Of a stretch of DNA of 64,000 nucleotides, positions 1-47,279 are shown one piece after another (positions within the stretch are counted from its first letter, which is position 1; the number at the start of each line of letters is the position of its first letter). A program made the translations under genes and the position numbers. A model generated the notes under the pieces. That model worked only from the letters and a program-made list of their open reading frames with translations, made no database searches and was not told the DNA's origin. Source of the DNA: a virus (lineage: Duplodnaviria > Caudoviricetes); IMG/VR virus record IMGVR_UViG_3300020388_000009. One strand, 5' to 3'.

Positions 1-3000
1 TTGACACAGATGTGTTTTGCGTACCGATACCACTCTCTCCCCGTGTTTCAGTTTCTATTCGCCAGTTTTCTATTATTGTAGGTGCAGTATCAATTATTTG
101 CATTGTAGTTGTAGTAGGTGATGATATTGTATGATCATTTTCATTTGTTGGTGCATGTACAAAACTAGCAGAAGCAATCCAATCTCGCGTACTTCCGGCG
201 CCTACTGATAAACTACTTCCGGAAAACGATGTTGTGTATTGTGCTACAATTCTATTTGATGAATCTTCAAATGAATTGACCGTTACTATTGATGAACCAG
301 TTTCAAATGTAATTGTTTCAGTTATATTAGTTTGTCCGGAAGATTTAAGTATTTTGGTAACAGCCGTTGGATGTGTAACTGGACCTACTGGTTCAATTAT
401 TTCAGCTCGTATTCGGAATCTAGATACCGATTGTGATGCGTATAATGATGCAGAATCATGAGTTGCAAATGATGATGAATCAGCTAATGATCGTCTAGTT
501 ACTCCATATAACACGGTCCGCTGTTGTGTTCCGGTAACGCCGGCGTCCGTAACAGCGCTAGCACTATGACCATAATTTTCAGATTCTACAAATATATTTT
601 TAATAATTGTCGGTGGTGTATCATGTACAGTTAACTCACCATCCGTTTCAGTAATATCAAATCCATTTTCGCCAGAAACTTGTTCTATGAAACTGCCAGT
701 CAAAACATATACTGTATTACCACCTGCAGCTGCCGTAAATGATCTTCCTGTAAATGATTGTGTATATCGAGTAACTAATCGGTCTTGGTCATCATAACCA
801 TGTGTAACTAGTCCACCTTCCGCTATTGATCCAGTATCTATCATGTAAAGTTTAGAACCACTACCATATGATGCACTTACCTGTATTTTATGAACACCTG
901 GTCCAATTGGTTCAGTTACCTTTGCTCGGAATCTTACACGTGATACTGATTGAGATGCGTATATGGATGCGGATGGATGATTAGTCCATGACAAACTTTC
1001 AGATGTTGCATTTGTTATTCGAGGATCTCCGTATAACACTGTACGGGTTGCATTAGACATGGCCATATCAGAATATCCATGCGTTTCTGTTTCCCAGAAA
1101 ACATCTTCAATGGCAACTTTCGGAGTATCATGTACTACCATGGTAGTTGATTGTCCAGATTCGGTTACAAATCCACTAGCATCATTAGGTGTATGTAATA
1201 TTGATCCGGAAGTATATGTCCATTCGGTAAAACTATTACTACTAGCTGATAATTGTTGTCCTACCCATGATGATGTGTAATGAGCAACCAATCGGTTCTG
1301 TGCATCATATGCAATTGCAGATGAAGCAGTATGAACTGAGCCAGTACTAAAATATAATATATTATTAATAGGGGCAAGACTAGAACCAATTATTGTTTCA
1401 AAAAATTGTAATTCAAATATACTAAAATATTGACTAGTAGAAGATGCATTACATGTGAATCGATAATATTGGTATGTATTTAAATTTGTAAAATCGTTTA
1501 TACCTCTTGTTACAGTGCTTGATCCGTTACCGGTAACTGTATCTAATGTAACGTATCCTGAATTAGGTGAATTAGAAGCTTCGAATGTCCAACCAGTCAT
1601 TCGATATGAGCTAAAATATAATATATATTGTCCAATATTTACCGCAGAACCGAAATCATATGTAAATGAAGCTCCAGCAATTCCTGAACTGTCATAAAAT
1701 ATATGTGAGTCAGTATTAGCAGTACCTGACGTAGTACCATCAAATATATCACCAGGCCAAAACGTGTCACTTGCTGCAGTAGTTGTTAAATTGTTTTCTG
1801 ATAATCCTGATATGGCAGCACCTATACTATTTGTACCAGGAGGTGTGCTCCATACCTTTTCAAAACGTGATGCAGTATGATGCGGTCCGAATGGCTCTGT
1901 TATAGTTGCTAACACACGGAAACGTGACACGGAATGAGATGCGTATAATGATGCGGAATCGTGGCCTTCAAAGGAAGCGGAATTTATCAAAGTATGATGA
2001 GGTGTACCATATAATACTGTACGCATTGTATCTGCACTTCCTGTATCAGAATATCCGTACGTCTCTGATTCATATACTATGTTTGTTATTTCCGTTGCCG
2101 GAGTAGCGCTCACAGATACCGAAGCATATGTTCCTGGTATAATTGTACGTCCGGCGTTTGTAGCAGAATCAAATGAAGCACTAAATGTATACTCGCCAGG
2201 CAACAAATTAAAGTTGATCCATGATGATGTGTAATGAGCAACTAACCGGTTCTGTACATCATATGCAATTTCAGATGATGCAGTATAAGTTGCACCAGAA
2301 CTAGTATGAAATTGAAATTCATAAGAATGTGCATAGTCACTACCTGGTGTAGTTTCTAAAGTTGACTTCATGTTGGTATGGTGTGGTCCAAATGGTTCTG
2401 TCACAGTTGCCAACAAACGTAATCGTACAACTGATTCACTTATATATTCTGCCGATTTTTCATATCCTTCTAAACTTGAAGTTTCTGAAACTTGTAATGT
2501 TGAAGTGTATCCATATAATACGCTTGCCGATCTTTCAAATGATCCAGTACCAGTTAAAAATGATCCAGATTCCACTTCCACTCGTACATTTGATATTTCA
2601 ATATCAGGTACAGGGGTTACTGTCAATGTGGTCATTGGTCCTGCTGCGGCATCAGATATATGATTATAAACTCCATGACGTATAATATCTGTAGTATCAC
2701 CAGTTTTATTAATTAGAGTATATGTAGCTGGTTCATACTGAAAAGGCGAAAAACCTAAACTTTCTGTCACATCGGTAAAGGTAAAATTGTCGCCGTATGC
2801 AGATGCCGTGGCTCGAAATAATCCAGTTGCCATACTTCCGCTAAATCTGAAAGTTTTATTATCCAATACTGAAGTTCCGCCGAATTCGGCAAATTTTATA
2901 TCTGTGAAATGTGTACCATCTGCAACATAATCTGGTGGTTCTGTTATATCAGCCATTACAGATACACGTACCAGCGATGCAGTATAACGAGGATGTAGTC

Positions 3001-4114
3001 CAACAATATTATCACGTGTAATGACATCATCGTATAACACCGTAGTAGTAAAATTATTAATTCCAATACCAGAAAATGAACCAGATTCTATATGAGCTCG
3101 TATATTACTAATACTTGCAGTATTTGGTGGTATTACTAGTAAATTAACATCAACGGAAGATGAATTTTCAAACTGATTATTATCCTGCATATAAACCGTA
3201 AACGTTTCTTGATACGACTGCACTGATGATGCGTGTATTGTAGTTCCATCCATAACACCGTAGTTTGATATACTGGCAGTAAACACTAATGCATTATCTG
3301 GCATAGCCGATGCATCGGGACCATAACCATCTGGTGCACCTGGTGAGATAGATCCAGTTGCTATGAAAATTTGGCTATCAGCAATATCAGGTTGTGGATG
3401 TTTTAAAAATAAATTGTAACTTGCAGATACCGACGTGATAGGTGGATCTACCTGTACTCTGGAAGCTGAAAAAACTCGTATAAAATCGTTTTGATTAGAA
3501 TCTTCAGATCCGGTAAAACTAAAAATTATATCTTTGGCATTTGTATCATGAGCTAAAGACATAGTTAAACTAGCACGATGTGCAATCGTCGGTGGTACAT
3601 TGATAAACCCTTTAATAAATACAGTAGAATATACCAATTGAGTATTGTTTGCGCTACCGGTCTCAGTTGCATAAACTAAATATCGATGTACGCCAGGTGC
3701 TAAATCATTTTCAAATGCATTTTGACCGGTTAGATCATTAACATAATCCTGGCCAGTATAAGATGAATTGCCGCCGGCTTGCTTGGTTACAAATGTATCT
3801 TGAATTTTAATAAATGAATAATAATTTGGATTGAAATCCGCGGAATGTGTAGTTTGTATTAATACATCTCCTTGGTTCGCAACATCTTGTCCAGAACCAA
3901 GTATTATCACATGATCAATTGATTCAGCAGGTGATCCGGATATTCCAGAACCAGAACCAGCAAAAAATACTTCAGTACCTATTCCGGAGAGGCCAGAACC
4001 ATCACCTACAAATGCATCTGCAGTTATAGTGGTTGCTGTAACTCCACTTTTAAATTGAGCTATACTACCAGATTGTACCCAATTGCTACTAGTAAATTGA
4101 TGTTTTCCTGCCAT
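1..4114 (-). CDS. Giant repetitive virion (tail fibre/adhesin-like) protein, >1370 aa, runs off the left window edge
   Basis: Not in the ORF track. ATG at 4114 overlaps the TAA of the upstream gene (TAATG) and reads MAGKHQFTSSNWVQSGSIAQFKSG. The same frame is open at spot checks (~1800-1270, 40-2) and no minus-strand ORF is called here, consistent with no stop before the edge. Ser/Thr-rich, with internal repeats and a discoidin-like domain. Confidence 0.8.
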   Translation of the reverse strand, partial: MAGKHQFTSSNWVQSGSIAQFKSGVTATTITADAFVGDGSGLSGIGTEVFFAGSGSGISGSPAESIDHVIILGSGQDVANQGDVLIQTTHSADFNPNYYSFIKIQDTFVTKQAGGNSSYTGQDYVNDLTGQNAFENDLAPGVHRYLVYATETGSANNTQLVYSTVFIKGFINVPPTIAHRASLTMSLAHDTNAKDIIFSFTGSEDSNQNDFIRVFSASRVQVDPPITSVSASYNLFLKHPQPDIADSQIFIATGSISPGAPDGYGPDASAMPDNALVFTASISNYGVMDGTTIHASSVQSYQETFTVYMQDNNQFENSSSVDVNLLVIPPNTASISNIRAHIESGSFSGIGINNFTTTVLYDDVITRDNIVGLHPRYTASLVRVSVMADITEPPDYVADGTHFTDIKFAEFGGTSVLDNKTFRFSGSMATGLFRATASAYGDNFTFTDVTESLGFSPFQYEPATYTLINKTGDTTDIIRHGVYNHISDAAAGPMTTLTVTPVPDIEISNVRVEVESGSFLTGTGSFERSASVLYGYTSTLQVSETSSLEGYEKSAEYISESVVRLRLLATVTEPFGPHHTNMKSTLETTPGSDYAHSYEFQFHTSSGATYTASSEIAYDVQNRLVAHYTSSWINFNLLPGEYTFSASFDSATNAGRTIIPGTYASVSVSATPATEITNIVYESETYGYSDTGSADTMRTVLYGTPHHTLINSASFEGHDSASLYASHSVSRFRVLATITEPFGPHHTASRFEKVWSTPPGTNSIGAAISGLSENNLTTTAASDTFWPGDIFDGTTSGTANTDSHIFYDSSGIAGASFTYDFGSAVNIGQYILYFSSYRMTGWTFEASNSPNSGYVTLDTVTGNGSSTVTRGINDFTNLNTYQYYRFTCNASSTSQYFSIFELQFFETIIGSSLAPINNILYFSTGSVHTASSAIAYDAQNRLVAHYTSSWVGQQLSASSNSFTEWTYTSGSILHTPNDASGFVTESGQSTTMVVHDTPKVAIEDVFWETETHGYSDMAMSNATRTVLYGDPRITNATSESLSWTNHPSASIYASQSVSRVRFRAKVTEPIGPGVHKIQVSASYGSGSKLYMIDTGSIAEGGLVTHGYDDQDRLVTRYTQSFTGRSFTAAAGGNTVYVLTGSFIEQVSGENGFDITETDGELTVHDTPPTIIKNIFVESENYGHSASAVTDAGVTGTQQRTVLYGVTRRSLADSSSFATHDSASLYASQSVSRFRIRAEIIEPVGPVTHPTAVTKILKSSGQTNITETITFETGSSIVTVNSFEDSSNRIVAQYTTSFSGSSLSVGAGSTRDWIASASFVHAPTNENDHTISSPTTTTMQIIDTAPTIIENWRIETETRGESGIGTQNTSVS

Positions 4115-4599
4115 TACAATTCATCCGGATTAATTATAACTGTAGTTCCTGTAACTAAAGTTTGTTTTGATGCAGTACTCATTGCTAATAATAAATATCT
4201 GTATATACCAGTACCTAATGTATCTGTTAACGAATTTTGATTAACTAATCCTTTTTGTGTTCCAGAGTAATCAGAAGCTTCTTCCCATAACGCGGCATCG
4301 GATAAATCTTGTCGTAAAAATGTGAAATGATTAAATGTTGCACCGGATGCCGAAACTGATAATGTTATGGTATGGTTGCCGCCGGATCCAGTGATCCATT
4401 CTCCATATGTCGGTGGAGTAGCTAATGATTCAGATCCAATAAATAATTGTATTCCGGTTGTAGTAATACCAGTTAACGCAGATCCATCTCCTATTAATTT
4501 TGCGTTAACCGATCCGGTCACATCAATGCCAGATTTAAATTTTGCAATAGATCCGGATTGTACCCATTCACTACTTGTAAATTGATGATTGACAGGCAT
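4114..4599 (-). CDS. Virion protein, paralog of the N-terminal region of the adjacent giant protein
   Basis: HQFTSSEWVQSGSIAKFKSG vs HQFTSSNWVQSGSIAQFKSG; GIYRYLLLA vs GVHRYLVYA. Confidence 0.65.
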   Translation of the reverse strand: MPVNHQFTSSEWVQSGSIAKFKSGIDVTGSVNAKLIGDGSALTGITTTGIQLFIGSESLATPPTYGEWITGSGGNHTITLSVSASGATFNHFTFLRQDLSDAALWEEASDYSGTQKGLVNQNSLTDTLGTGIYRYLLLAMSTASKQTLVTGTTVIINPDEL

Positions 4600-6431
4600 T
4601 ACATTTTCCTTATCATTGCTCGAATTATACCGCCTTCAATATTTGTTTCTAATGATTGAGCAATTATTTTTCCAAATAATTGAAGTTCAAATATTTTACT
4701 AGGATTGACTGCTTTACCATGTCCTGTGATATTACTAGTAATTATATAATCGCCTTCGTATACTGGGCCATTTACTAATACAGGTTCTGCTCCTAATATG
4801 ATTGGAAAATTACTACCAGATGAAACGATACCCATTATTAACGGATCTGCTTCGGCTGTACATGGCACCATTTGACCGGCTTTTGAGACCAATACAGTAC
4901 CTGGTTGTAGTTGATCTAATCCTTTGGTTTCTAAATTAATTTCATGTATACCACCAAAAAATGTATCTATAGCAAATATTGCTTGCCATTTTTTATCAAA
5001 TGCTCCTAAATTATGAGAGCCATCGGCAGATGGTATTATATTTTCTCCAACCGCTGAAAAATCTCCTCCTCCTCCGCCACCACCATAACTACCAGTATAA
5101 TATACTTGGCCAGTATCTGTATCATACATTAACGTGTTTAATGCAGATGCCGTCGTTGATGCACTTATAAATAAATGTCCACTTGCACTTATATTACCTG
5201 ATGATGTTATGTCACCTAAAGTTTGTAATGAACTTGAAATAACACCTGCAGGCAAATTTAATTTTATTTGAGCAGAACTTGAAATGGTATTTGCTGGCAG
5301 ATTTAATTTTATTTGAGCAGAACTTGAAATGGTATTTGCTGGTAGATTTAATTTTACTTGAGCAGAACTTGATATTACACCTCCGCCAATATTTTCTTGC
5401 ACTTGCGATGCAGAAATAAATGATTGACCTTGCCAAGAACCTGATATTCCAGCTGGTGTAAAAGCAGTGCCTGACATGAAATCACTAGAAAGTTGTGCAG
5501 AACTTGATATTACACCTCTGAATATACCGACAAAACTGGGTGCGGTTACTATCCCATCAGCAAGAGTTAAATTACTACCGGTGATGAATACAGAACCTGT
5601 AAATTGATGTGTAACGTCAGATGGTATTGATCCAGAACCAAATATAGTTGATCCAGATCTTACAACTAACTGATCTTCGAATATCTGCACTCCATTAAAT
5701 GCAATACTTCCATCTAACCGCGTATCATCAGTTACTAACAATTGTGATGCTGTTACGCGCGATGATGATATATTTGTAAACGTTACATCTGTTCTGCTGG
5801 CTGATGCTTCAGTTAATGTTATACGAGTCGAAAATGATTCGCTAGCTGATGTTAACGTACTGGCTGATGCTTCAGTTAAAGTTACACGTGTACTAAATGA
5901 TTCGCTAGCTGATGTTAACGTACTAGCAGATGCTTCAGTTAAAGTTACACGTGTACTAAATGATTCGCTAGCTGATGTTAATGTGCTGGCTGTTGCTTCT
6001 GTCAATGTTACACGTGTCGAAAATGAACCACTATCAGTTACCATGCTACTGGCTGATGCTTCAGTTAATGTTATACGAGTCGAAAATGATTCACTAGCCG
6101 ATGTTAATGTGCTAGCTGTTGCTTCTGTCGATGTTACACGTGTACTAAATGATTCGCTAGCTGATGTTAATGTGCTGGCTGTTGCTTCTGTCAATGTTAC
6201 ACGCGCCGAAAATGAACCACTATCGGTTACCATGCTACTGGCTGATGTTTCAGTTAAAGTTACACGTGTAGAAAAAGATGCACTCGTATCATAAAATGCA
6301 CCTGATATTTGTGTTGATAAAGCAATAGGTATTATAGACCCTGTACCATCAGCAAAATTAACGCCATCAGTTTGGACTACACGCTGAAAAGTGTCTTTTA
6401 TATTCTGGCCTGTAAAATTGTCAAGAGCCAT
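4599..6431 (-). CDS. Tail fibre with coiled-coil repeats and C-terminal intramolecular chaperone (peptidase G2/IMC-like) domain
   Basis: 8x21-aa repeats, 3x15-aa repeats, Gly run. C-terminal PGTVLV..MGIVS..G..PV.V.GPV..GDYI..S...G.G pattern is typical of fibre chaperone domains. Confidence 0.65.
   Translation of the reverse strand: MALDNFTGQNIKDTFQRVVQTDGVNFADGTGSIIPIALSTQISGAFYDTSASFSTRVTLTETSASSMVTDSGSFSARVTLTEATASTLTSASESFSTRVTSTEATASTLTSASESFSTRITLTEASASSMVTDSGSFSTRVTLTEATASTLTSASESFSTRVTLTEASASTLTSASESFSTRVTLTEASASTLTSASESFSTRITLTEASASRTDVTFTNISSSRVTASQLLVTDDTRLDGSIAFNGVQIFEDQLVVRSGSTIFGSGSIPSDVTHQFTGSVFITGSNLTLADGIVTAPSFVGIFRGVISSSAQLSSDFMSGTAFTPAGISGSWQGQSFISASQVQENIGGGVISSSAQVKLNLPANTISSSAQIKLNLPANTISSSAQIKLNLPAGVISSSLQTLGDITSSGNISASGHLFISASTTASALNTLMYDTDTGQVYYTGSYGGGGGGGDFSAVGENIIPSADGSHNLGAFDKKWQAIFAIDTFFGGIHEINLETKGLDQLQPGTVLVSKAGQMVPCTAEADPLIMGIVSSGSNFPIILGAEPVLVNGPVYEGDYIITSNITGHGKAVNPSKIFELQLFGKIIAQSLETNIEGGIIRAMIRKM
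5225..5380 (-). repeat. 45-bp (15-aa) tandem repeat, ISSSAQ(I/V)KLNLPA(N/G), 3 copies plus partial
   Basis: Visible in both DNA and protein. Confidence 0.85.
5795..6290 (-). repeat. 63-bp (21-aa) tandem repeat, S(E/G/A)SFSTR(V/I)TLTEA(S/T)AS(TLTSA/SMVTD), 8 copies
   Basis: Visible in both DNA and protein; 21 aa = 3 heptads. Confidence 0.9.
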
Positions 6432-6441
6432 TTATATAACC

Positions 6442-7002: not shown

Positions 7003-7318
7003 GTATATTCTCCACTGTTAAATCAATTCCTAATACTTCTTTTACTACTAATTCACAATCTTCGGCAGTTACTTTAATATCATCTCTAATGGTTTTTTGT
7101 CCAGAATATGTTTCAATTCCTTTAACTTTGCATATCAATTTTATAAATCGCTTCTTTTTTTCTGGATCTAATTGATTAACATTATATGCAATTTCATCAC
7201 CAGTCGCGGCTCCCACTTCCAATATAAGGAATACATCATCCCATTTATATGGATTTTCACCCCATGTACTTATACCGGTTATTGATCTTACATTATCCCA
7301 TCGTAAATTAATTGCCAT
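6995..7318 (-). CDS. Hypothetical protein
   Basis: 107 aa ORF directly behind an ATATTTAT motif. Confidence 0.6.
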   Translation of the reverse strand: MAINLRWDNVRSITGISTWGENPYKWDDVFLILEVGAATGDEIAYNVNQLDPEKKKRFIKLICKVKGIETYSGQKTIRDDIKVTAEDCELVVKEVLGIDLTVENIHV

Positions 7319-7323
7319 TTTAT

Positions 7324-7331
7324 ATAAATAT
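7324..7331 (-). promoter_or_regulatory. Putative late promoter ATATTTAT
   Basis: Motif recurs at 15 intergenic/upstream sites just 5' of minus-strand genes. Confidence 0.6.
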
Positions 7332-8999: not shown

Positions 9000-10736
9000 C
9001 TATATAGTATCTAAGCCATGAACTAATACTTTACCGTAGAATTCAGGACGAACTATTTTCTTAGCATAACGAGTCATAACACCTTTTCTTGGAGTAAAGT
9101 TGTCTGGATCGTATACCAATGGAGTCATAATTAATGGAATGTATGGAGAATATACAGCACCTGTTTCTAGGAACTGAGATCCACGATATCCCATTAAAAT
9201 AGAATTTTCAGTCATATATGGATTCTTATAAACTTGGAATCTAGAATTAATAGATCCAACTTTTTGAACACCCATTGCAAACTGCATTTTATCACCATCT
9301 GTATCAGCAGCATATCCTGGAATAGATTCTAGGATAGTCGCAACAGTTGGAGAACATACAAGGAAGTTAGCTCCACCTCTTAAAGTTAATTGGTGAATTT
9401 TGTTCGAAACTTTTTGTATTTTAGTACCTAAAGTTTGGAACCATGTTCCTTGGTTATATGCTTGAGCTGCAGAATTTCCGGCATTAAATCCACCAACGGC
9501 TGCATTATACTCATAACCTACTTTCGCAGACCATCTTTCAACAGTTTGAGCATTTTCTTGTAACATGCCTAAAATTTCTAAATCAATTTCTTGCGAAACG
9601 TATTCAGATAACATGCTAGTCAATTCTGCTTCAGCATCAATTGAATGATATGCATTTAAATCTTGGGCAAATTCTGGAGTCCATACTGCCTTCAACTTAC
9701 GTGTCTTTGCAACAATGGCTTCAGATCTCATTTCAAGATTAATTTCTGGAATATTTAAAGAAGTGGAGCCGTTCATGTCTTCGTTAGGAGCTTGATCTTC
9801 GTAGTCACCTCTAGTAATATCAGATGGTTGTAACGCAAATGATACTTTAAATGCAGATGTCGCTTTGATATCTGCATCTTTCTTAATTAAGAATTCAATA
9901 TGCGAACCGTTAGCAGTTGTTCTAGTAAATTCTGGATAGAATGCATTTGATCCAGACAAGTTAAATGAACGAACAGCTTCTTGATCATAACGAGCAGCTA
10001 CAGATGCATCTGAATGTAATGATTTAGAAGGTACTGATAAAATAACATGATTATCACCATGTACAGATGCAGAAAACTCAGAATTAAAGTTTGTAAAGAT
10101 ACCTAACTCTGTAGCAGTCATTGCATCACCTGCTGATGCAGCAGTAGATGTAAATAAACCAGTAGTTGCAGATATAGAACCAGTTCTTGCAGTAGTAATT
10201 CCAGATTCACCTAATGTAACAGAAGCACCTTCCACCATATTAACTGAATATCCAAAACGACCTGGGCCATAAAGACCTTCAGTTCCTGGTGTTCCTTTAC
10301 GAGCATCAGTGATACCAAATACAGAATCAGATTGAGCATCTTTTCCTTGACCAGTCAAGAAATCATTTCCACCTGCTTGGTCAATTTGATTAACCGCAGT
10401 ACCATATTTAAAGTCTAAGTAAAATACTAGACCAGATGGTAAGTTCATTGGTTGTACAGAAACAAAGTCTTTAGCAGCAATTTCAGCAAAAATTCTACGA
10501 ACTAATGGAAGAGCTACCCCTGACCATTCTTCTGAATTTGAGTTTCCACCTGTCGCAGATGCTTCTGTTACCAATTGCTTGGCTTGGTTCTCTAAAAGAA
10601 CGGCCATGCCTTTTCTTTCAACCTCTGATGATAATCCTTCCAATAAACCAGTCCTTTCCCACTTACGTTCAAGTGCGATAGCAGCTGCATTTTGATTGGC
10701 ACGACCATCTTGAGGCAATAATGAATTTATATTCAT
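9000..10736 (-). CDS. gp23: Major capsid protein (T4 gp23-like)
   Basis: LLENQ, LPLVRR, VQPMNLPSGLVFYL, AKTRKLKA.WTPEFAQDL..H..DAE.EL, Y.PYIPL, F.P..G.MTRY motifs. Confidence 0.95.
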   Translation of the reverse strand: MNINSLLPQDGRANQNAAAIALERKWERTGLLEGLSSEVERKGMAVLLENQAKQLVTEASATGGNSNSEEWSGVALPLVRRIFAEIAAKDFVSVQPMNLPSGLVFYLDFKYGTAVNQIDQAGGNDFLTGQGKDAQSDSVFGITDARKGTPGTEGLYGPGRFGYSVNMVEGASVTLGESGITTARTGSISATTGLFTSTAASAGDAMTATELGIFTNFNSEFSASVHGDNHVILSVPSKSLHSDASVAARYDQEAVRSFNLSGSNAFYPEFTRTTANGSHIEFLIKKDADIKATSAFKVSFALQPSDITRGDYEDQAPNEDMNGSTSLNIPEINLEMRSEAIVAKTRKLKAVWTPEFAQDLNAYHSIDAEAELTSMLSEYVSQEIDLEILGMLQENAQTVERWSAKVGYEYNAAVGGFNAGNSAAQAYNQGTWFQTLGTKIQKVSNKIHQLTLRGGANFLVCSPTVATILESIPGYAADTDGDKMQFAMGVQKVGSINSRFQVYKNPYMTENSILMGYRGSQFLETGAVYSPYIPLIMTPLVYDPDNFTPRKGVMTRYAKKIVRPEFYGKVLVHGLDTI

Positions 10737-14479: not shown

Positions 14480-14809
14480 TTATCCTATTTTAATACCTTT
14501 AAATACAAATATCTTAGGGGTGTCTGCAACTGAACCTGAAATTTGAATTACAGACAAATCATGTATTTCTCCAGTATTTAGATTAGGTGCATATAATTCG
14601 CCTCCCTGGACTAAACTCATTGTCGCTTTTCCAGGAGCAGCTATCAATACGGGGCCATAACCTAACATCGATCCGGTAAAATCGACTTGCCCTCCGGTAT
14701 ATTCATATACTGCATTATATTTTCCAGTACCTGGATGTATGTTATGTGCATAATATGCATCTGATATACTTGACGATACCCAATATGGATTATCATATAC
14801 TCTAGCCAT
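14480..14809 (-). CDS. Hypothetical virion protein
   Basis: 109 aa, beta-rich. Confidence 0.55.
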   Translation of the reverse strand: MARVYDNPYWVSSSISDAYYAHNIHPGTGKYNAVYEYTGGQVDFTGSMLGYGPVLIAAPGKATMSLVQGGELYAPNLNTGEIHDLSVIQISGSVADTPKIFVFKGIKIG

Positions 14810-35116: not shown

Positions 35117-36814
35117 TTAGTAGTCCCAACGAACGATAAAATTCATATCAATATCATCACGTTTTTGCACCGGTTGAGCTAATTTTGAAACTGCTAATAA
35201 TTGAGCTTTATCATTATATAATCCAATTGTAGTAATATATGGATTAACTTGTTTTGATGTAAACATAGTTTTACGTGTATCTCCTGGTAATGCATGCCCT
35301 TCTTCTGTTTGAGATAAAATTTTATTTGTAGCAGGCGTGAATGTGGCAGTAGGATTCATCGAAACATTGAATTGATCTTTTGGTACACGTACTAGTACTT
35401 CATTTTCATATATAGTATGAGTACCTTTATATGAAACATTAAATGTATTACCGAAACCACCGGATCCGGTATTATATTTTGACATAGGCGATGAAATTAC
35501 CATTTCGCCATTACGGTAAAATACATTACCCGCTACATTTGTTTGAAATAATGAACCAGATAAATAATGACGATTTGATAGTGAATTAATTTCTGTATTG
35601 GATACCGCATAATCATACATACGAATTTCTGCTATATAATTATCATTTGTTATACTTTGACTTCCAGAAATAAAATTACCTATTATAATATCATCATTAT
35701 TTGATGTTACACCTATAGGTAATGATCCTGATGTAGTACCTGCAGAATTTCCATTAACAAACATTTGACATAATGAAGCTGAATTACGTATACATACATG
35801 CTGCCATTCTAAATTCGATGATATATAATTTGCAGCTGATGATGATATATGAAGTTCACGCGTACCATCAGATGCATGAAAATGAACAGAGCCTGATAGT
35901 CCATTACCTGCAGGCCTAGCAACACCAATTACAAATGGTGTACGTATGTTAGAGTAAGATGATGTAATACTTGGCATATTAACCGTCTTATCGCGATATT
36001 TAGTTAAACTATTTCTTTTATCAATATAAAGTTGTTTACGTACACCACCTTTTGATATAATAGGTCTATTTTTGACTACTGAATTATATATCCAGAATGA
36101 TATAGACCAATCATCGTAATAATTAAATTTATTAAATGTTTCCTCATGAGGAACACGTATAAACGTTTTATTATTAGTTTTAAATGAATTACCAGAAGTT
36201 TGAGTTACACCACCGGTCATATTTATACCAATACCATCTTCTTCTTTAAAATTGCTAGTTTTATATTGTTTTTGTACCGGGCCTTTATTACCAAATTCTT
36301 TATTAAATGACATATGAAAAATATTACGGCTAGATGATGCAAAACTAGCTGTTGATATTATGGTATCACGTAAATTACCGTAACCATCATCTTGTAATGT
36401 ATATGAATGTCCATTAGTAAATGTTCCTGTAACTGTACCCGGTTTAATACGTTCACCTACTTCTAAATATGGCGCAACTAAACATGATGCTGATTCATAT
36501 AAATGTTTTTCCGTAACAGTTGCGTTAGTTAATTCATTAGATTTAACTGGGTTATACGGATCTCCATAATACCTATGATCTAAACTATGCCAAATCACAT
36601 GTTGATTTGTACCATCTAATGAATTGACTGGAAAGGTTTCTGCTGCATGTCCTATATTAATTGGTAATTTACGATATATACCATTATGATGAACATATCC
36701 AGATGATGTAGTAAATGCAGTGCTAGTTATTCGATATGTTTTATATGATTTAAATGCTCGTCGCTGAAAATCATTTGATCGTATTGGTCTGAAAACACTT
36801 GGAATAACTGGCAT
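35117..36814 (-). CDS. Virion structural protein with LamG/concanavalin-like domain
   Basis: WSISFW, WQHVC, IAEIRMYD.A.S..EI; C-terminal YITTIGLYND..LLAVSKL. Confidence 0.75.
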   Translation of the reverse strand: MPVIPSVFRPIRSNDFQRRAFKSYKTYRITSTAFTTSSGYVHHNGIYRKLPINIGHAAETFPVNSLDGTNQHVIWHSLDHRYYGDPYNPVKSNELTNATVTEKHLYESASCLVAPYLEVGERIKPGTVTGTFTNGHSYTLQDDGYGNLRDTIISTASFASSSRNIFHMSFNKEFGNKGPVQKQYKTSNFKEEDGIGINMTGGVTQTSGNSFKTNNKTFIRVPHEETFNKFNYYDDWSISFWIYNSVVKNRPIISKGGVRKQLYIDKRNSLTKYRDKTVNMPSITSSYSNIRTPFVIGVARPAGNGLSGSVHFHASDGTRELHISSSAANYISSNLEWQHVCIRNSASLCQMFVNGNSAGTTSGSLPIGVTSNNDDIIIGNFISGSQSITNDNYIAEIRMYDYAVSNTEINSLSNRHYLSGSLFQTNVAGNVFYRNGEMVISSPMSKYNTGSGGFGNTFNVSYKGTHTIYENEVLVRVPKDQFNVSMNPTATFTPATNKILSQTEEGHALPGDTRKTMFTSKQVNPYITTIGLYNDKAQLLAVSKLAQPVQKRDDIDMNFIVRWDY

Positions 36815-36832: not shown

Positions 36833-38170
36833 TTAAAAATCTAATTTTACTTTTATTAACGCTTCTCTAGTGTAATTTTTCAATAAAGGCTGACTTAATT
36901 TAGCGATTGCTAATAACTCTCGTCTATCATTATATAATCCAACTGATGTAATAAAAGTTTGAGGATCATTTTTAAATGAATTAAAAGATAATTGACCTAA
37001 TGATCCAGTAACAAAAGAAGGATTATTGGAATAATTAAATTCAGCATTTTTAGCTCTAACAAAGTAATATGTTGATTTAACTGCTTCCGCGGAACGAGCC
37101 TGAATACCACCAGTAATAGATCCGCCTACTACTCCAGCTGAACTAGAAATTGATGTAAATAATTTTACAGCATTTTCACCTTGTATTTGAGAACCAGTAA
37201 CAGTATGGAAATTAACTCCTCCAGATGCATGTACTTTATCTAATTGTCGAGCATCTAATATTGCAACACCATGTTGTGGATATAATAATCCGTAATTTAC
37301 AGTATCACCGCTATTTAAATACATACCTGCTCCATCTAATGAACCAGATACTATATTATAAACTTGACCTGATTCTCCTAAAGTAGCAGATGTTAATGAC
37401 GAATCATCAATTAATTGTATATATAAATCTTTACCAGCTATTTTTACATGAGATCCAGTATGAGCAGCATTTGGTACCGATGGTCCTAATGAACCAGATA
37501 ATTGAGCTAATGTTATTTCAAAATTTCCTGGATCTACTTTTTCTCGCATACGTGCGCGGTTAAAATTTAATACATAAATTGAATCTGTATCTGATCCATT
37601 AATGGTAAACTTTTTATCATCTGGCCCTAATAATACTTGAGCATATTGTTTATAAATTGCTCTAGATGGTGTATCATTATTTAAACTACCTGCAGCATCT
37701 TTAGACCCAGAACCATTAAAATGTCCATATGCTAAAGATAATTCTACATTTGCAGAAGAATTAGAAGCAGGATCTCCGGTACTATAAATTTCCTGATAAT
37801 ATGTTTTTTGAATATCTGTTAAATTTGAAGATGTAAACATACTTGTTAAACTTGCAACATTACCAGCAAATAATCCACGCGTTACAGTTTCAACATTATT
37901 AGCTAATACATCATCAACAACATCAAACCGAGTATATATTTTTCCTAATCTAGATGTACGAGCTTCGGCTTCGCGTTGTGCTATTATTTCATCAGCTAAT
38001 TCCTGCGCACGTTCTTCTATCGATATACTACTTATTCGAGTAGGAACCGGTGCCTTTTGACGTTGACGGGTAGGTTCTGGTGAAGTAGCTCGTACCGGAG
38101 TTGCTTGCCGAGGTGCTTTATTTGCAGCACGCGCACCTCTAAAATTTGATCTATAAGTTCGTCTAGCCAT
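36833..38170 (-). CDS. Virion structural (baseplate/fibre-attachment) protein
   Basis: C-terminal FITSVGLYND..LLAIAKLSQP is paralogous to the neighbour. Confidence 0.7.
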   Translation of the reverse strand: MARRTYRSNFRGARAANKAPRQATPVRATSPEPTRQRQKAPVPTRISSISIEERAQELADEIIAQREAEARTSRLGKIYTRFDVVDDVLANNVETVTRGLFAGNVASLTSMFTSSNLTDIQKTYYQEIYSTGDPASNSSANVELSLAYGHFNGSGSKDAAGSLNNDTPSRAIYKQYAQVLLGPDDKKFTINGSDTDSIYVLNFNRARMREKVDPGNFEITLAQLSGSLGPSVPNAAHTGSHVKIAGKDLYIQLIDDSSLTSATLGESGQVYNIVSGSLDGAGMYLNSGDTVNYGLLYPQHGVAILDARQLDKVHASGGVNFHTVTGSQIQGENAVKLFTSISSSAGVVGGSITGGIQARSAEAVKSTYYFVRAKNAEFNYSNNPSFVTGSLGQLSFNSFKNDPQTFITSVGLYNDRRELLAIAKLSQPLLKNYTREALIKVKLDF

Positions 38171-38914: not shown

Positions 38915-41900
38915 TTACTCTACACGTAATGTTCCTACACCATCTGGTGGTGGCGTTTCATTATAAATTAATTGATTAGGATTAACAGAATACACTTCAA
39001 TAATTGGTTTAAAATCTAATTGAGGATATATTGATGCTTGGTTAATTCCTGGTCCGGTTATTTTACTACCTGCATATTTTTGATTTTCTGGCATTATGAA
39101 AACATCATCGCGATATGTTCCTGCCGCAGATGATCTGCTAAAATATTGTCCTACCGATGCACTTTCAGGTGAACTATAAAAAAATGTTTCAGTTGTGTAT
39201 ATATCACTAGTCCTAGAATTTAAAACAAATCCTTCATTAACAGACCCGGTATGGCTACCAGTTTGTGAAACTTGTACATTTATTAAATAATTGCTATCAA
39301 CATAACCATTCGACGCTGTTTGATATATCGATATTCCAGATATTATACTTTCATCAAATGATATAGAAGCTTCATAATTAATACTTTCTGCGCTTGAGCT
39401 AGGTATTTGTTCTGGTATTAATGCATCATACTGTGGATTGGTAAATTCTGGTTGTCTTACTAATCTAACTTTTGCTCTTTCAATTGCATGTGGTTCTACT
39501 AATAATCCCATGGCTTCATCTGCTCGTTCTGGTAATAATTGTTTCATTTGATCGAATAAAGCAAAATCAAATTGACTGAAAATTCTTATAAAAGCATTAA
39601 CATCATTTCTATCAGTATATTTTTTCCAGTATTCTTTTGAAAAAGAATCTAAATCAGGATAATCAATTTTAAATTGGTCTTCTGGATTTCCTATAAAATT
39701 ATCAACATCAACATCACCAGTTTGATTAAAAATATCTTTATTAATTTGATCTGCCATGGAATAGAATAAACCTATACGGTTTGTATCAATTGGAGCTCTA
39801 TCAAATCTAGAACGTTCTGCATTTTGTACCGGTGATAAATTATTAATTAATTGGTTATCTTCTAAACGTATTTTTTGTGATCTAGGTAAACTACCACCGA
39901 TTGATACACCTTGTATATAATACGTTTCATTAACTGGTACAAAGTTACCACGTATTTCACTGACAGGAGTTTGGAATCCGCTAGCGGATGCATATGTATT
40001 ATTTTGATCTGTAAATGGTGGTGAAAAATCTTGTATTGCTTGATTTGGATGACTCGATGTAAATCGATAATTACTAGGAGCTCCAGAACAATCGAATGTT
40101 TTTAAATCTGTACCAAAAGGATAATGTCGTATCAATGTATCAAATGATGAAGTAGGAGAAATGCTAGACACATACGAAGTTGGATTAAATGTATGTAAAT
40201 CAAAACTAACATCATTTACCACCTCGAGCCAACTTCGGTATTCTTGCATAGAACCAGTAAATGTACCAGGAAATATATTTGAATATCTATCATTATTTGT
40301 TATAGGATTTCCATTATAAATACTAGCACTATTAATAGGAGCTCCAAATGAAGCTGATAAAGTAGCTTTAACTGCATACGTATCAATGCCATTAATTTCT
40401 CCTCCTAACCGTAATATATGAGAATTTGTTCCATCTGAAGCTGATGCCCACATTTGATGTGTATCTACTGATGGTGTTAAATTAATACTAGCTGAATGTA
40501 CAATTTTATTTGTAATATAATCAGATGCTTGCTGACATCTAACAGTATATGTAGTATCGGTATTTGAACTAGTATTATATGTATCAATTCCAACACTTAA
40601 ATTCCAAAGATTACCATCATATACTGGAAAGTAATTTGTCATTGATGCGGATGCTTTACCAGCACCAGTCGGCATTACAAAATGTAGTCTTCCATATTTA
40701 TCACTTCCAGAATATGAACTAGTATATTGCAGCGCTATAGCCCATGATTGAATCGAATCATTAATACGATTACTCATTAAAGCCATATTCTGTTTTTTAT
40801 CTGGACGGAATCTTAATTCATGAGTTAATATTGGAATTTCACCTCTATCAATTCCCCATGTTCCGATACTACTTGAAACCCAATTATTAGGAATTTCTAA
40901 ATGTGCATCAGAATCAAAATGTAATGCATATACAAAACGATCTTCGATAATTGCCGGTACATCATCTGCAACTTTAGGACCTCCATATTCTCTTATAGAA
41001 AGTAAAGTCTGCGGGATACCATATATATTTAATAAAGCTTTTAAAGACCTTGTAGTACCTTTAGTTTTAAGTATATACGGTAAATTATTAACTATTCTAC
41101 GCCAAATATCAGTTGTAATTATTTCATCTGATTTAGAAAATAATGATCCAGTACTAGCAAATTGTCCAGAACCAGATGATACACCTAATTTATACTGCCA
41201 TAATGCTGAAGCTTGATTACCATCTGATAAATTCCATCCTAATGATTTCGCAACTTGATATAATACATGTTTATTTTGCCCTAATTCTGGATGTTCTTCT
41301 GGTTTATATATTTTTGATAAATTATTAATATATGAATATATAATATCATAATGATGTCCTATCATATTAACAAATAATTCATATTGAGAATTATTTTCAT
41401 CTCGCCGTATATGTTCTGGTATTGTTTTTTGTAACGAATTATTATTCTCTGAATCGTATAATGAAGCTGTAGCAGATACATTTGTATACCAATTGGTTGC
41501 CAATGGTGAAGTTGTAGTATGCAAAACATATTTACCATCAGATATATATTTAGGCCATGATGGAATACGATATAATTGTGATCCTATACGCCCACCTTCT
41601 ATTTCATATTCTTCCGATTCATACATTGTTTGATGCGTAAATAAACTAGACGTTGGTTCATGGTATAACCATCGTTCGAAACCATCAAATGATCCTATAA
41701 CATCATTTTTTCTATTAGTATTTATAGCCACATTATTTTGCAATGCAGAAATATCCGATCCAGAAGTATCGTTTAATATACTAATACGATTATCATAATA
41801 TTCAATTAATTCTAATTTATATTTAAAATTTGCAACACGTTCTTTAGCAGATGAAAACTGTATAAAATTATTAAGTCCGGAATAATCTATCCCTAATTTT

Positions 41901-42631
41901 ACACCTGATAAAGATCCGGAAAACATTTTATCAATAATATTTTGAGATGTAGCTGTATTTGCATTTAATAATGAATTCCATGATTCAAAATCTGTTTCTG
42001 TAATAGTACCATATGACGTTTCAATATTAAAGTTTGGTCCAAGTAATTCTGTATATGAATCAAAACCTTTATCTTCTGAACTTATAGTTATAGTATCATT
42101 AAATGTATCTGCAATTTCATCGACAATCCAAGCAGATTGGCCTTCTTCAATGTCTGCCGGTAACGGTTCTAATAATCGTATTATTAATTCATCATCAATT
42201 ACTATTTGATTAATAATTTTTACAAGTTGATCATCACCAAAATTTAATACGGGTTCTGCATCGACAGTTAAATTATCAACAAATTCTTGTAACATTCCGT
42301 CATGATTTTCAGGATCATCAACTACCACATGTTCAAGTTTTAATTCACGGCGATCTGGAGATATCTCTTTAAGGAATATCATTGGGAAATCTACAGAGCC
42401 TAATAATGGATTATATATGTTTATATTAACATCAAATTTTCCTCGACGAATATTAAAAGAATTTAAAACTGCATTATGATTTACAAGAAGTGTTGATGTA
42501 TCAAATAAATGATTTTCAATAACACCGCCTACAATATACCGAGGAGAATCTCCTGGTGTATAATAATGACATTCAACTATGCCATCTTTAATTAAAACAT
42601 CTTCTATATTATTTATGATATTTTTTGCCAT
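38915..42631 (-). CDS. Baseplate wedge protein (gp7-like)
   Basis: LPYILKTKGT..SLKALL..YG motif; 1238 aa; baseplate context. Confidence 0.65.
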   Translation of the reverse strand: MAKNIINNIEDVLIKDGIVECHYYTPGDSPRYIVGGVIENHLFDTSTLLVNHNAVLNSFNIRRGKFDVNINIYNPLLGSVDFPMIFLKEISPDRRELKLEHVVVDDPENHDGMLQEFVDNLTVDAEPVLNFGDDQLVKIINQIVIDDELIIRLLEPLPADIEEGQSAWIVDEIADTFNDTITISSEDKGFDSYTELLGPNFNIETSYGTITETDFESWNSLLNANTATSQNIIDKMFSGSLSGVKLGIDYSGLNNFIQFSSAKERVANFKYKLELIEYYDNRISILNDTSGSDISALQNNVAINTNRKNDVIGSFDGFERWLYHEPTSSLFTHQTMYESEEYEIEGGRIGSQLYRIPSWPKYISDGKYVLHTTTSPLATNWYTNVSATASLYDSENNNSLQKTIPEHIRRDENNSQYELFVNMIGHHYDIIYSYINNLSKIYKPEEHPELGQNKHVLYQVAKSLGWNLSDGNQASALWQYKLGVSSGSGQFASTGSLFSKSDEIITTDIWRRIVNNLPYILKTKGTTRSLKALLNIYGIPQTLLSIREYGGPKVADDVPAIIEDRFVYALHFDSDAHLEIPNNWVSSSIGTWGIDRGEIPILTHELRFRPDKKQNMALMSNRINDSIQSWAIALQYTSSYSGSDKYGRLHFVMPTGAGKASASMTNYFPVYDGNLWNLSVGIDTYNTSSNTDTTYTVRCQQASDYITNKIVHSASINLTPSVDTHQMWASASDGTNSHILRLGGEINGIDTYAVKATLSASFGAPINSASIYNGNPITNNDRYSNIFPGTFTGSMQEYRSWLEVVNDVSFDLHTFNPTSYVSSISPTSSFDTLIRHYPFGTDLKTFDCSGAPSNYRFTSSHPNQAIQDFSPPFTDQNNTYASASGFQTPVSEIRGNFVPVNETYYIQGVSIGGSLPRSQKIRLEDNQLINNLSPVQNAERSRFDRAPIDTNRIGLFYSMADQINKDIFNQTGDVDVDNFIGNPEDQFKIDYPDLDSFSKEYWKKYTDRNDVNAFIRIFSQFDFALFDQMKQLLPERADEAMGLLVEPHAIERAKVRLVRQPEFTNPQYDALIPEQIPSSSAESINYEASISFDESIISGISIYQTASNGYVDSNYLINVQVSQTGSHTGSVNEGFVLNSRTSDIYTTETFFYSSPESASVGQYFSRSSAAGTYRDDVFIMPENQKYAGSKITGPGINQASIYPQLDFKPIIEVYSVNPNQLIYNETPPPDGVGTLRVE

Positions 42632-43735
42632 TTATCTTCCTAATCGTCTCACGTTTCGAACTTGAGATACTACACGTTCCGGTAAATTATTACGATCTAT
42701 GAGTACTGATCTTCTTACATTAGGTTCAGATTGTTGACTAGAATTATTTGATACTAAATCATTCCAACCAGCATACTCATCATAATACAACTCAGATCCT
42801 TCCGGTTCATATGGCTGCATATATTCTAAATCAAATACTTCATTGTTTGTTGTATTAATATATCGTTGATATCTAGCAACTTGTACATAATCTGTATTAC
42901 TTATACCACGACGACCTCCTTCATCATATTCATAATGATTGAAATCATTCCAAACTGGCGAACTTAATCCATCATCTTGTAAATTAGTAATCACCCCTTC
43001 ATCGATCATTACATTTAATATTGAATTATCATCATACCAGTCTGCTGTTGCATCATAATCTAATCCTAAACCATTAATATGATTATAATATTCTAATGTG
43101 GTTGACTCTGGAAAAGGCCGCCCGTTCTGTGTAGTTGCATATGCAATAGATCTCCATTCACCGTAAATCATCATTCTTACAGATTCTACTATAATATCAG
43201 CATTAAAATCATTTAATACAATCATTTCGCCTTCATATTGCGCACGAAGTTTTTCTAAATATGTTTGTTTCTGATATACTTGTTCATCATAATCATTACC
43301 ATCAATATAATCTCCTGGATCTCTAAAGAATGGAAAAGCCGGCTTATAACCAGATTCAAAACGAATAACATTATTATATTCTGATAACCGGGATGCCAAT
43401 TCATTTAAATCATCATATATAAATTCATCTATATTTGTTTGAATACGTATTGCATTATATGTTAGTCCACGTTCTACTAACATTACCTCTAACGTTTTAT
43501 AATCAGGAATTAGTATAGGTTCTATATTACCAGACTTTAAAGCAATCTGAACTTCATTATTAATTAATGCATCATGGAAATCGCCAGATAATTTTACATC
43601 AGAAATAAATTCATCTGTACTTATATCGGTACCGACTCCAACTATAGTATCAAAAAATTCAAACTCTGAATCTAACTTACCTTGTATGCGAGTCTGTACT
43701 AATTTATATTCTCTATATTTCGATCGATCTATCAT
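42632..43735 (-). CDS. Hypothetical acidic protein in the baseplate cluster
   Basis: 367 aa. Confidence 0.6.
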   Translation of the reverse strand: MIDRSKYREYKLVQTRIQGKLDSEFEFFDTIVGVGTDISTDEFISDVKLSGDFHDALINNEVQIALKSGNIEPILIPDYKTLEVMLVERGLTYNAIRIQTNIDEFIYDDLNELASRLSEYNNVIRFESGYKPAFPFFRDPGDYIDGNDYDEQVYQKQTYLEKLRAQYEGEMIVLNDFNADIIVESVRMMIYGEWRSIAYATTQNGRPFPESTTLEYYNHINGLGLDYDATADWYDDNSILNVMIDEGVITNLQDDGLSSPVWNDFNHYEYDEGGRRGISNTDYVQVARYQRYINTTNNEVFDLEYMQPYEPEGSELYYDEYAGWNDLVSNNSSQQSEPNVRRSVLIDRNNLPERVVSQVRNVRRLGR

Positions 43736-44874
43736 TAATTAATAACCTTAAAATAAAAATCGTCAAATACTTGTATATCATCGCCGCCATCTCTTTCAAT
43801 CTTTAATTCTATTTGATAATATCGTTCTGGCATAAATGAATCCATTCTTAATTTAAAGAAACTACCATTTACATCACAGTCAATTTTAGTTCCTAATACA
43901 TCATATGAAATAATAGTTTCTTTAGTCTCAGTATCTAAAATTTTATAAAATGATGATGTAGGTAATCGTTCTCCAGTTAAATAATATGAGGATGTTACAT
44001 ATGTCTTTGATGGAAATTCTGGACGTACGCCTAATCTAAACTTCGCTATTTCTGATGTTTTATATTCTGATTTTATATTTTTAAAATATGGAACATATGA
44101 GTCGGATGTGATTTGAGCAGAAGATGTATTTGTAAATAATGTATTATCCCATATTACTTCTAATCTTGGTACAAAAATAGTATGCGATTCTCTACCAAAA
44201 AATTTAATTGAACCTAACACATCACCAGATAATTCATCATCCTTTGTACGTTTAATTATAAATCCATGATTAGAAATATTACCTTTAACCCAATTATTTA
44301 CTATATCAGTTACATCCATACGTATATCAGGTATCTGATTTTCAAATGATTGAGATGCTTCATATAATGAACCGGTAATCCATGTACCACCACCTAAATG
44401 TTTTTCAGTAGCTGATGGTTGCCAATTATATTGAGCAGACCCCGTTCTCCAATATGTTGCTTGATCTTTTGAGTTTCGATAATACCATGATGCACCATTT
44501 GTTGTTTTAGGAGTATCATTTTTATATCCATTTCCATTTTCCCATGATTGTGATATTGGAAATGCTTGTAAATTATATGTTTGTAACAAATCAGAAGCAT
44601 CTGACGATCTTAAAGATAGATATATAGAAGCAGATGTATTACCGGTACCAATTGGTGGAATTTTCCCATTAGTAACAGCTGTGGTTAAATTAGTAATTTC
44701 CGAACCAAAATCGATTAATATTCTAGAATTATATGTCTTGTTACGAATCTTACCTTCAATTTTAGAACCAGATACATTTTTTGTTAATTCTAAAATTTGG
44801 TCAATACCAGAATTTTGTTCTGGGTACCGTTCGTATAAAGTCGCATCCTTTTCTGCATAAAATATTCTATACAT
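43735..44874 (-). CDS. Virion protein with DNRLRE-like domain
   Basis: KDATLY..P..N.G, SRILIDF, MDVTDIV..W, N.GFIIK, FFGRE...PRLEV.W. Confidence 0.65.
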   Translation of the reverse strand: MYRIFYAEKDATLYERYPEQNSGIDQILELTKNVSGSKIEGKIRNKTYNSRILIDFGSEITNLTTAVTNGKIPPIGTGNTSASIYLSLRSSDASDLLQTYNLQAFPISQSWENGNGYKNDTPKTTNGASWYYRNSKDQATYWRTGSAQYNWQPSATEKHLGGGTWITGSLYEASQSFENQIPDIRMDVTDIVNNWVKGNISNHGFIIKRTKDDELSGDVLGSIKFFGRESHTIFVPRLEVIWDNTLFTNTSSAQITSDSYVPYFKNIKSEYKTSEIAKFRLGVRPEFPSKTYVTSSYYLTGERLPTSSFYKILDTETKETIISYDVLGTKIDCDVNGSFFKLRMDSFMPERYYQIELKIERDGGDDIQVFDDFYFKVIN

Positions 44875-46737: not shown

Positions 46738-46751
46738 GAGTTAACCTTTCC

Positions 46752-47279
46752 TTAATATACTCTACTAATTTGTTGTAATTCTAATGACGGAGTTGCATCC
46801 GATACAGTAAAATCATTTTCTGATGCTAATATATTAATTACCATTTCTGAACCAATATTAGTTATTGTAAATTTTAACATAATTGATAATGCATGCATAT
46901 CAGTACTACTAGATATAACAACATCATTTACATTGATATATGGTAACCAATATTCAATATCTTCTATTAAACTATCTTTAAGAGTTAATCGCAAATCATC
47001 AACATTATTTTGAAAAAGAGTATCATAAATATTAGTACCAAAATTAGGTTGCATATATCGTTCACCTTTACGTGTTAACAACAAATTTTTTAAATTTGAA
47101 ACAACTTGATCTTGTGTAGTATATGATTGAGCAAATACTATACCACCAGCAATGCTGCCAGATGCATAATTCGAAGTAACAGGTTTTGATTTACTAGAAT
47201 TATTAAACGGTAACATAATACCGATAGCTACATCCGGTGATTCGTTACGTGGTTGGTATTTATATACTGGTCTAGCCAT
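46752..47279 (-). CDS. gp25: Baseplate wedge/sheath initiator (T4 gp25-like)
   Basis: NLKNLLLTRKGER.MQP.FG..I. Confidence 0.85.
   Translation of the reverse strand: MARPVYKYQPRNESPDVAIGIMLPFNNSSKSKPVTSNYASGSIAGGIVFAQSYTTQDQVVSNLKNLLLTRKGERYMQPNFGTNIYDTLFQNNVDDLRLTLKDSLIEDIEYWLPYINVNDVVISSSTDMHALSIMLKFTITNIGSEMVINILASENDFTVSDATPSLELQQISRVY

Follow-up and report, generated by a model that had tools for sequence, protein, structure and literature searches.

Here we show that an ordered, serine-ending tripeptide, [ST]-[G/A/(S)]-S, is over-represented in tail, baseplate and fibre proteins encoded by a 64,000-nucleotide stretch of DNA from an uncultured marine T4-like phage (record IMGVR_UViG_3300020388_000009; hereafter, the window). 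The tripeptide is a real and selected signal at the protein level, in which the order of residues matters, and its excess is specific to a lineage and not a trait of fibre proteins in general. Since the excess was found only in relatives that possess a particular set of glycosyltransferases, the tripeptide is probably the attachment site of a phage-made sugar coat. We judge the chances to be about even that it is an O-glycosylation sequon of a phage-encoded cytoplasmic system targeted to the periphery of the tail.

All genes of the window are on the minus strand and its GC content is about 32%. Ten proteins carried the motif in excess and are listed below, with observed counts against those in shuffled sequences (aa, amino acids; ORF, open reading frame).

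2..4114, minus strand: giant fibre protein, 1371-aa C-terminal part of an ORF that leaves the window, motif-rich; 18 [ST]GS against 3.8, 44 [ST][GAS]S against 13.6, 37 [ST][GA]S against 7.5 (p = 1e-14), T[GA]S to S[GA]T 16:3.
4114..4599, minus strand: 161-aa protein, motif-rich; 6 [ST][GAS]S against 1.4 (p = 0.001).
4599..6431, minus strand: 610-aa coiled-coil-like fibre with a weak SMC-like coiled-coil match; 36 [ST][GAS]S against 10-13 (global and block shuffles).
14480..14809, minus strand: head-neck region, protein of 109 aa with a mild excess; 3 motifs against 0.3 (p = 0.003-0.005).
23577..24629, minus strand: tail-associated protein of 350 aa with the highest motif density; 10 [ST]GS against 1.3.
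25490..30478, minus strand: 1662-aa large tail/baseplate protein; 23 [ST][GAS]S against 9.1 (p < 0.0005).
35117..36814, minus strand: 565-aa ConA/LamG-type jelly-roll protein (Pfam PF13385), a probable receptor-binding baseplate protein; 12 motifs against 2.6.
36833..38170, minus strand: 445-aa baseplate-module protein with orthologs in the related phages immuto, Mel-JY01, RM378 and LR756508; 6 [ST]GS against 0.7.
38915..42631, minus strand: 1238-aa baseplate-module protein; 24 [ST][GAS]S against 4.6, with 8 [ST]GS.
43735..44874, minus strand: 379-aa DNRLRE-like/beta-helix-like baseplate protein (NF033679 at 33.6 bits, just under the cut-off of 34); 7 motifs against 1.4 (p = 0.0005).

Each protein was shuffled with its composition preserved, either globally or within blocks of 15 or 30 residues, a comparison that the preliminary description of this DNA had proposed. 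The ten proteins exceeded both the global and the block shuffles 3-9-fold (p mostly ≤ 0.001), and because the block shuffles were exceeded as well, local Ser/Gly richness is not the cause of the excess. When the ten proteins (6,890 aa) were pooled, [ST][GA]S occurred 136 times against 27.7 expected (z = 21.6), and 64 times against 8.2 expected with a hydrophobic residue directly after it. The order of residues mattered, as T[GA]S was found 51 times against 12.5 expected, whereas its mirror image S[GA]T was found 11 times against 12.5 (binomial p = 3e-7 for 51 vs 11). SAS, SGS and TGS ranked 1-3 for over-representation among all 8000 tripeptides, while the permutations SGT, GSS, GST, STS and SST were at or below expectation, and N-x-[ST] was found 90 times against 87.0 (1.03-fold). 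Hydrophobic residues were enriched at positions -1 and +1, and the flanks were poor in charge. The serine codons of the motif were a mixture of TCN and AGY; selection therefore acts at the protein level, and this codon diversity rules out a signal in the DNA. Outside these ten, the window encodes 46 proteins (12,310 aa), in which the motif stood at 0.78-fold of expectation; avoidance of the motif by non-virion proteins was considered and rejected, as this value is not significant and the relatives are inconsistent.

The hand counts of [ST]GS in the preliminary description were exact (350-aa protein, 10; 610-aa, 10; 445-aa, 6; 565-aa, 5; 1662-aa, 10; 161-aa, 3), and we reproduced its zero counts in terminase, portal, ligase and the 812-aa protein and its single occurrence in the 1050-aa SbcC-like protein. 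The 1371-aa partial ORF and the 1238-aa protein are two enriched proteins beyond those counts. That the motif occurs in unrelated folds was borne out by the ConA/LamG jelly roll, the DNRLRE-like domain (just below cut-off) and the coiled-coil fibre. The same description had placed a motif cluster in the capsid protein and proposed glycosylation of the whole virion surface, for which the following virion proteins are pertinent.

9000..10736, minus strand: major capsid protein, T4 gp23-like; 3 motifs in the variable middle, not significant.
15718-17604, minus strand: portal, 628 aa (PHROG portal, E = 3e-76); 0 [ST]GS, a motif-free virion control.
44884-46737, minus strand: gp6-like inner baseplate wedge, 617 aa (PHROG baseplate wedge subunit); 1 motif, likewise taken as a motif-free virion control.
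46752-47279, minus strand: gp25-like baseplate wedge (PHROG/Pfam); motif at background.

The three capsid motifs are real and lie in the variable middle (residues 185, 222 and 261, sites partly shared with immuto), but their number is not significant (3 against 2.2 expected, p = 0.38). The portal, gp6-like and gp25-like proteins showed the motif only at background level. Thus, the motif marks peripheral tail proteins and not the whole virion surface, and the broader proposal was not supported.

Conservation was examined in the family of the 350-aa protein, for which 33 full-length homologs down to 46% identity were aligned. At 10 of the 14 sites in the window protein, every homolog kept the third Ser, and changes stayed within the motif class, with position 1 switching between S and T and position 2 among G, A and S. 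One site, for example, read SGS in 10 homologs, TGS in 9, SSS in 8 and SAS in 6, and another SGS in 17 and TGS in 16. Ser conservation was 0.80 inside motifs vs 0.57 outside, and that of Thr 0.92 vs 0.51. A glycine-requiring beta-turn is ruled out by the interchange of G, A and S at the same sites. The family of the 565-aa LamG protein (68 homologs), of which an identical copy is encoded on a 177-kb contig, followed the same pattern, the third Ser being invariant or nearly so. Here the mean was 6.9 motifs per protein against 1.4 expected, with sites such as TGS 30/SGS 30 and SGS 37/SAS 20. Motif starts were spread over 65 alignment columns, which shows that some sites are fixed and others turn over. 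This pattern of conservation resembles that of a sequon and suggests that the motif is read by some other factor.

The AlphaFold model of the 565-aa protein (predicted local distance difference test score, pLDDT, 79) matched lectin-type jelly rolls in Foldseek, a generic carbohydrate-binding fold. Its 36 motif residues were placed in loops (28), at strand ends (6) and inside strands (2), as compared to 70, 23 and 23, respectively, for other small residues (p = 0.07). The model of the 350-aa protein was poor (pLDDT 53) and unusable, and sequence searches of solved structures gave no useful match for the 445-, 1238- or 565-aa proteins.

The window was placed among known phages through its capsid protein, which was matched to annotated capsid proteins by tblastn. 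Its nearest relatives were Microcystis phage Mel-JY01 and Flavobacterium phage immuto (57% identity), followed by LR756508, an uncultured phage of 484 kb (51%), and Rhodothermus phage RM378 (36%). In the capsid tree, the window, immuto, Mel-JY01, the IMG/VR genomes G003 and G007, LR756508 and RM378 formed a clade with 100/100 support. The T4-type capsid, portal, terminase and baseplate genes grouped with RM378 and not with T4 or the cyanophages, which corresponds to the clade named "Far-T4" (PMC4360716). In the terminase tree, LR756508 branched as the sister of the core group; internal branches were weak. Mel-JY01 is on record as a Microcystis phage, and its close relatives all infect Bacteroidota.

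An identical motif scan was run on whole genomes, with ORFs scored at p<1e-3. The excess was found in the following genomes.

Window: observed/expected 3.57; 6 ORFs at p<1e-3.
Immuto: observed/expected 2.13; one 1053-aa protein holds 53 against 12, with T[GA]S to S[GA]T 26:1; motif-rich proteins are encoded at 97658-100819 and 135075-136196.
Mel-JY01: observed/expected 2.29; seven ORFs at p<1e-3.
RM378: observed/expected 2.29; enriched in the tail cluster, 64.8-78.5 kb.
G003 (IMG/VR): observed/expected 1.78; five ORFs at p<1e-3.
G007 (IMG/VR): observed/expected 2.19; five ORFs at p<1e-3.
G004 (IMG/VR), a collinear 103-kb relative of the window (66-88% identity) that covers the structural region only: observed/expected 2.93; six ORFs at p<1e-3.

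No ORF reached p<1e-3 in T4 (ratio 0.80), in the cyanophages S-SSM4 and S-CBS4, in the Bacteroidota phages phi38:1, phi4:1 and phi14:2 (Cellulophaga), FCL-2 (Flavobacterium) and crAss001 (Bacteroides), or in the huge phages LR756511 and LR756508. An effect of host phylum is ruled out, as the five unrelated Bacteroidota phages were negative. LR756508 has a baseplate module syntenic with that of the window, with its orthologs at motif background. In the family of the 1238-aa protein, motif counts were 17 in the window, 8 in immuto, 13 in Mel-JY01 and 4 in LR756508. The LR756508 orthologs of the 379-aa and LamG proteins held 0 motifs and had unrelated residues at the motif positions of the others, in alignments that call for caution at 22-29% identity. 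On these data, the folds do not require the motif.

The preliminary description had also proposed a search for co-occurrence of the motif with sugar genes across relatives, and here the outcome was positive, with the motif tracking the glycosyltransferase genes g91 and g93. In immuto, these belong to an 11 kb sugar island (49172-59988) that encodes five glycosyltransferases, two DegT/WecE aminotransferases, a PglB-like acetyltransferase, an epimerase and a methyltransferase; neither a flippase nor a polymerase is annotated there. As determined with family hidden Markov models (HMMs), g90 (GT4/GT-B) was present in all members of the clade, LR756508 included, with a weak match in S-CBS4. Its paralog g91, always the next gene, was present in immuto, Mel-JY01, G003, G005, G006, G007 and RM378 (in the last at E = 5e-9, directly downstream of g90), and g90 and g91 cross-matched by HMM at E = 1e-7 to 1e-12. 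The distribution of g93 (GT2) was the same as that of g91 (RM378, E = 8e-13). Both g91 and g93 were therefore present in every motif-positive genome with enough sequence, these seven, and the family HMMs found them in none of the 10 motif-free genomes. Only 7 of 195 immuto ORFs were common to Mel-JY01 and missing from LR756508, LR756511, T4 and S-SSM4, and three of these seven were the glycosyltransferases g91, g93 and g102. Among 50,697 phage records, g91 was found only in immuto and Mel-JY01, and g93 in these two, its only further match being a weak one (E = 4e-4) to two short Listeria phage records. Relatives of g91 in IMG/VR number at least 559. Liquid chromatography-mass spectrometry of immuto DNA detected only dA, dC, dT and fdPreQ1 and no sugar-bearing base (PMC10516641). 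It follows that the island does not make a sugar-bearing nucleoside, which argues against DNA as the target.

Some variants of these genes were seen in single relatives. In LR756508.1 (305432-309877), the g90-type glycosyltransferase adjoins a CMP-sugar cytidylyltransferase and a GT29 sialyltransferase, which hints at a sialic-acid-like glycan in this phage without tripeptide excess. In Mel-JY01 (PP395634.1), the g90 homolog at 83441-84932 is split into ORFs 83441-84013 and 84024-84932. At 4750-8430 of the same genome, a 1226-aa protein with a g91-like GT1 domain adjoins a motif-rich 508-aa protein (3065-4591), and may be a glycosyltransferase fused to a protein of structural size.

Taken together, these data are consistent with a system in which [ST]-[G/A/(S)]-S, usually with hydrophobic flanks, would be the acceptor signal recognised in the cytoplasm, and its invariant third Ser the most likely point of attachment. 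The enzymes would be soluble and belong to a set conserved in every motif-bearing relative with enough sequence, namely the paralogous GT-B pair g90/g91, the GT2 enzyme g93 and usually a second GT2, g102, encoded beside variable nucleotide-sugar enzymes. The glycan would be added to loops of peripheral tail, baseplate and fibre proteins that are folding or already folded, ahead of assembly or in the course of it, and a sugar coat on the tail periphery would be the outcome. What the sequences show is the ordered enrichment, its conservation within the motif class, its place in loops of one model, its confinement to one lineage and its co-distribution with g91 and g93; the presence of any modification, its nature as a sugar, the Ser that bears it and the enzyme that initiates it are inferred. 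That an abundant marine and freshwater clade of Bacteroidota T4-like phages possesses its own sequon-directed cytoplasmic O-glycosylation, through g91 and g93 together with g90, and coats its fibres and outer baseplate in this way, is a proposal we regard as a little short of an even chance.

Several observations weigh against this proposal. Searches of the 64-kb window with Pfam, PHROGs, family HMMs and the immuto island (tblastn) found no glycosyltransferase, in agreement with the preliminary description. g90 by itself is insufficient as the motif-linked enzyme, as LR756508 has g90 and no motif excess. Nor does any glycosyltransferase island predict the motif, as LR756511 has at least 7 glycosyltransferase hits and homologs of sugar-modifying enzymes and no motif; the two phages show that glycosyltransferases alone do not predict it. 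The co-distribution comes from a single clade, within which LR756508 is the one informative contrast and the branching is poorly resolved. The capsid, which is the largest exposed surface, was not significantly enriched. Finally, the near-invariance of the third Ser and the hydrophobic flanks would also fit a structural role.

Such a role was considered in the form of a lineage-specific structural device, in which the unmodified Ser/Thr-small-Ser would act as a turn or strand cap at loop-strand junctions, its side-chain hydroxyls hydrogen-bonded to the backbone and its small middle residue allowing tight packing. An invariant third Ser, conserved above most residues, fits such a device, as do hydrophobic flanks with charge depleted nearby and motifs at loops and strand ends, S and G being common loop formers. 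However, the LR756508 orthologs do without the motif in the same module organisation, and the beta-rich fibres of T4 and cyanophages show no excess. The motif is present simultaneously in unrelated folds, its positions turn over, and the middle residue swaps among G, A and S; moreover, a structural device leaves the link with g91 and g93 unexplained. We regard it as unlikely, yet as an alternative to be taken seriously. Less probable still, in our estimate, is a signal for another phage-encoded factor, be it phosphorylation, acylation or nucleotidylation of Ser, or docking of a clade-specific fibre chaperone or assembly factor. Any trans-acting reader would fit with an excess confined to one lineage, with conservation inside the motif class and with sites in loops, and the clade encodes many unknown proteins, with a methyltransferase-like gene and a ClpP-type protease in the window. 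Against this, the seven genes that profile comparison found to be specific to motif-positive genomes include three glycosyltransferases but no recognisable kinase or acyltransferase, and nothing emerged as a candidate for a different type of reader.

An artefact of Ser/Gly/Thr-rich composition, low complexity or internal fibre repeats might be suspected from the carriers themselves, in which S, T and G abound (10-17% Ser). The 610-aa fibre has about 8 tandem 21-residue repeats (residues ~45-215) rich in SAS/TAS, which supply part of the SAS excess, and repeats in the giant fibre inflate SAS likewise. However, 129 distinct sites were left once repeated 9-mer contexts were dropped, and S/T/G-rich fibres of T4 and cyanophages had no excess. 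With the global and block shuffles exceeded and the permutations at or below expectation, this explanation has a negligible chance of being right and is excluded.

Virion glycosylation itself is known in phages. To our knowledge, chemical proof of it exists only for mycobacteriophages, and we know of no sequence rule. As described in PMC12619734, mycobacteriophages glycosylate the virion with phage-encoded glycosyltransferases (Freeman et al. 2023, Cell Host Microbe). The likeness, as far as that account goes, lies in a tailed phage that glycosylates its structural proteins within the host cell by means of its own soluble glycosyltransferases, which is what we propose here. By the same account, mycobacteriophage glycans are on the C-termini of capsid and tail-tube subunits, whereas the candidate tripeptides are dispersed in loops of tail, baseplate and fibre proteins; a concentration of sites on C-termini of capsid or tail tube was not found here, candidate sites being dispersed and the capsid not significantly enriched. 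The host phylum and the glycosyltransferase families, so far as described, differ as well.

Of the proteins with solved structures, the closest to g90 was B736L of chlorovirus NY-2A (PDB 3OY2; E = 5e-8), a glycosyltransferase whose virus carries out its own capsid glycosylation (PMC4691112). Chloroviruses and other giant viruses resemble the proposed system in using viral glycosyltransferases and nucleotide-sugar enzymes independent of the membrane-bound machinery of the cell. Chlorovirus glycans are N-linked to Asn of the major capsid protein, at sites without a common sequence pattern (PMC4691112). A eukaryotic virus with N-linked capsid glycans therefore differs from the present case of a candidate ordered Ser tripeptide on tail proteins.

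GtfA/GtfB is a cytoplasmic pair of paralogous GT-B O-GlcNAc transferases whose genes lie side by side and which modify Ser in S-A-S/S-x-S-rich adhesin repeats. The paralogous GT-B pair g90/g91, adjacent in the seven relatives that carry g91, resembles it. Similarity to Gtf1 of the GtfA/GtfB system (PDB 4PQG) was not significant (E = 0.046), and membership in the GtfA family was not found. The substrates of GtfA/GtfB are long low-complexity repeats, whereas the tripeptides here are dispersed in folded domains, except for the 21-aa repeats of the 610-aa fibre.

Bacteroidota have a general O-glycosylation system with the sequon D-[ST]-[AILVMT], which acts outside the cytoplasm and so away from the site of virion assembly. 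It resembles the proposed system in a three-residue O-glycosylation signal with a hydrophobic residue after the acceptor, and Bacteroidota are the host phylum of the phage clade. However, D-[ST]-[AILVMT] was found 21 times against 29.2 expected in the motif-rich proteins (0.72-fold) and at 1.10-fold in the rest, so that the host sequon is not enriched and the motif is indeed distinct from it, as the preliminary description had held. The five other Bacteroidota phages, moreover, had no [ST][GA]S excess.

Literature searches found no paper on this motif or on virion glycosylation in this clade, and a defined sequon on T4-like tail proteins would be new as far as these searches show. If the proposed sequon is true, it would be the first sequon for protein glycosylation to be defined in any bacteriophage; glycosites would become predictable from sequence across hundreds of uncultured phages, giving a readable code for sugar sites in an abundant aquatic clade and an explanation for the sugar-gene load of these phages. 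A sugar coat on the host-recognition organelle could alter adsorption, stability and masking from recognition by hosts and grazers, and soluble sequon-directed O-glycosylation would serve cytoplasmic glycoengineering. The idea is directly testable, as immuto (host Flavobacterium sp. LMO8) and RM378 are cultured.

Further genes of the window were assigned as follows.

7337-8002, minus strand: PhoH (PHROG/Pfam).
13071-13676, minus strand: head protease (PHROG/Pfam).
17627-19204, minus strand: large terminase (PHROG/Pfam).
24986-25486, minus strand: 166-aa protein, tail-fibre C-terminal domain (PHROG/Pfam).
51609-52220, minus strand: ClpP-type protease (PF00574, E = 8e-36).
55167-56462, minus strand: ligase (PHROG/Pfam).

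The giant fibre (2-4114) and the neighbouring 161-aa protein have near-identical N-termini of about 25 residues, TSS and SGS motifs included, which suggests a shared attachment module. The 610-aa fibre has a run of at least 7 glycines near residue 449. The stand-alone 166-aa protein (24986-25486) matches a domain found at the C-terminus of numerous long tail fibres and baseplate wedge proteins (31 PHROG families) and has no motif. In the motif-free 812-aa protein (21109-23547, minus strand), DUF6267 (PF19782, E = 5e-96) spans residues 429-808, and the N-terminal 200 residues show a weak match to a cytidylyltransferase PHROG. The ClpP-type protease (51609-52220) and a methyltransferase-like protein (58132-58815, minus strand) are among the genes upstream of the baseplate module.

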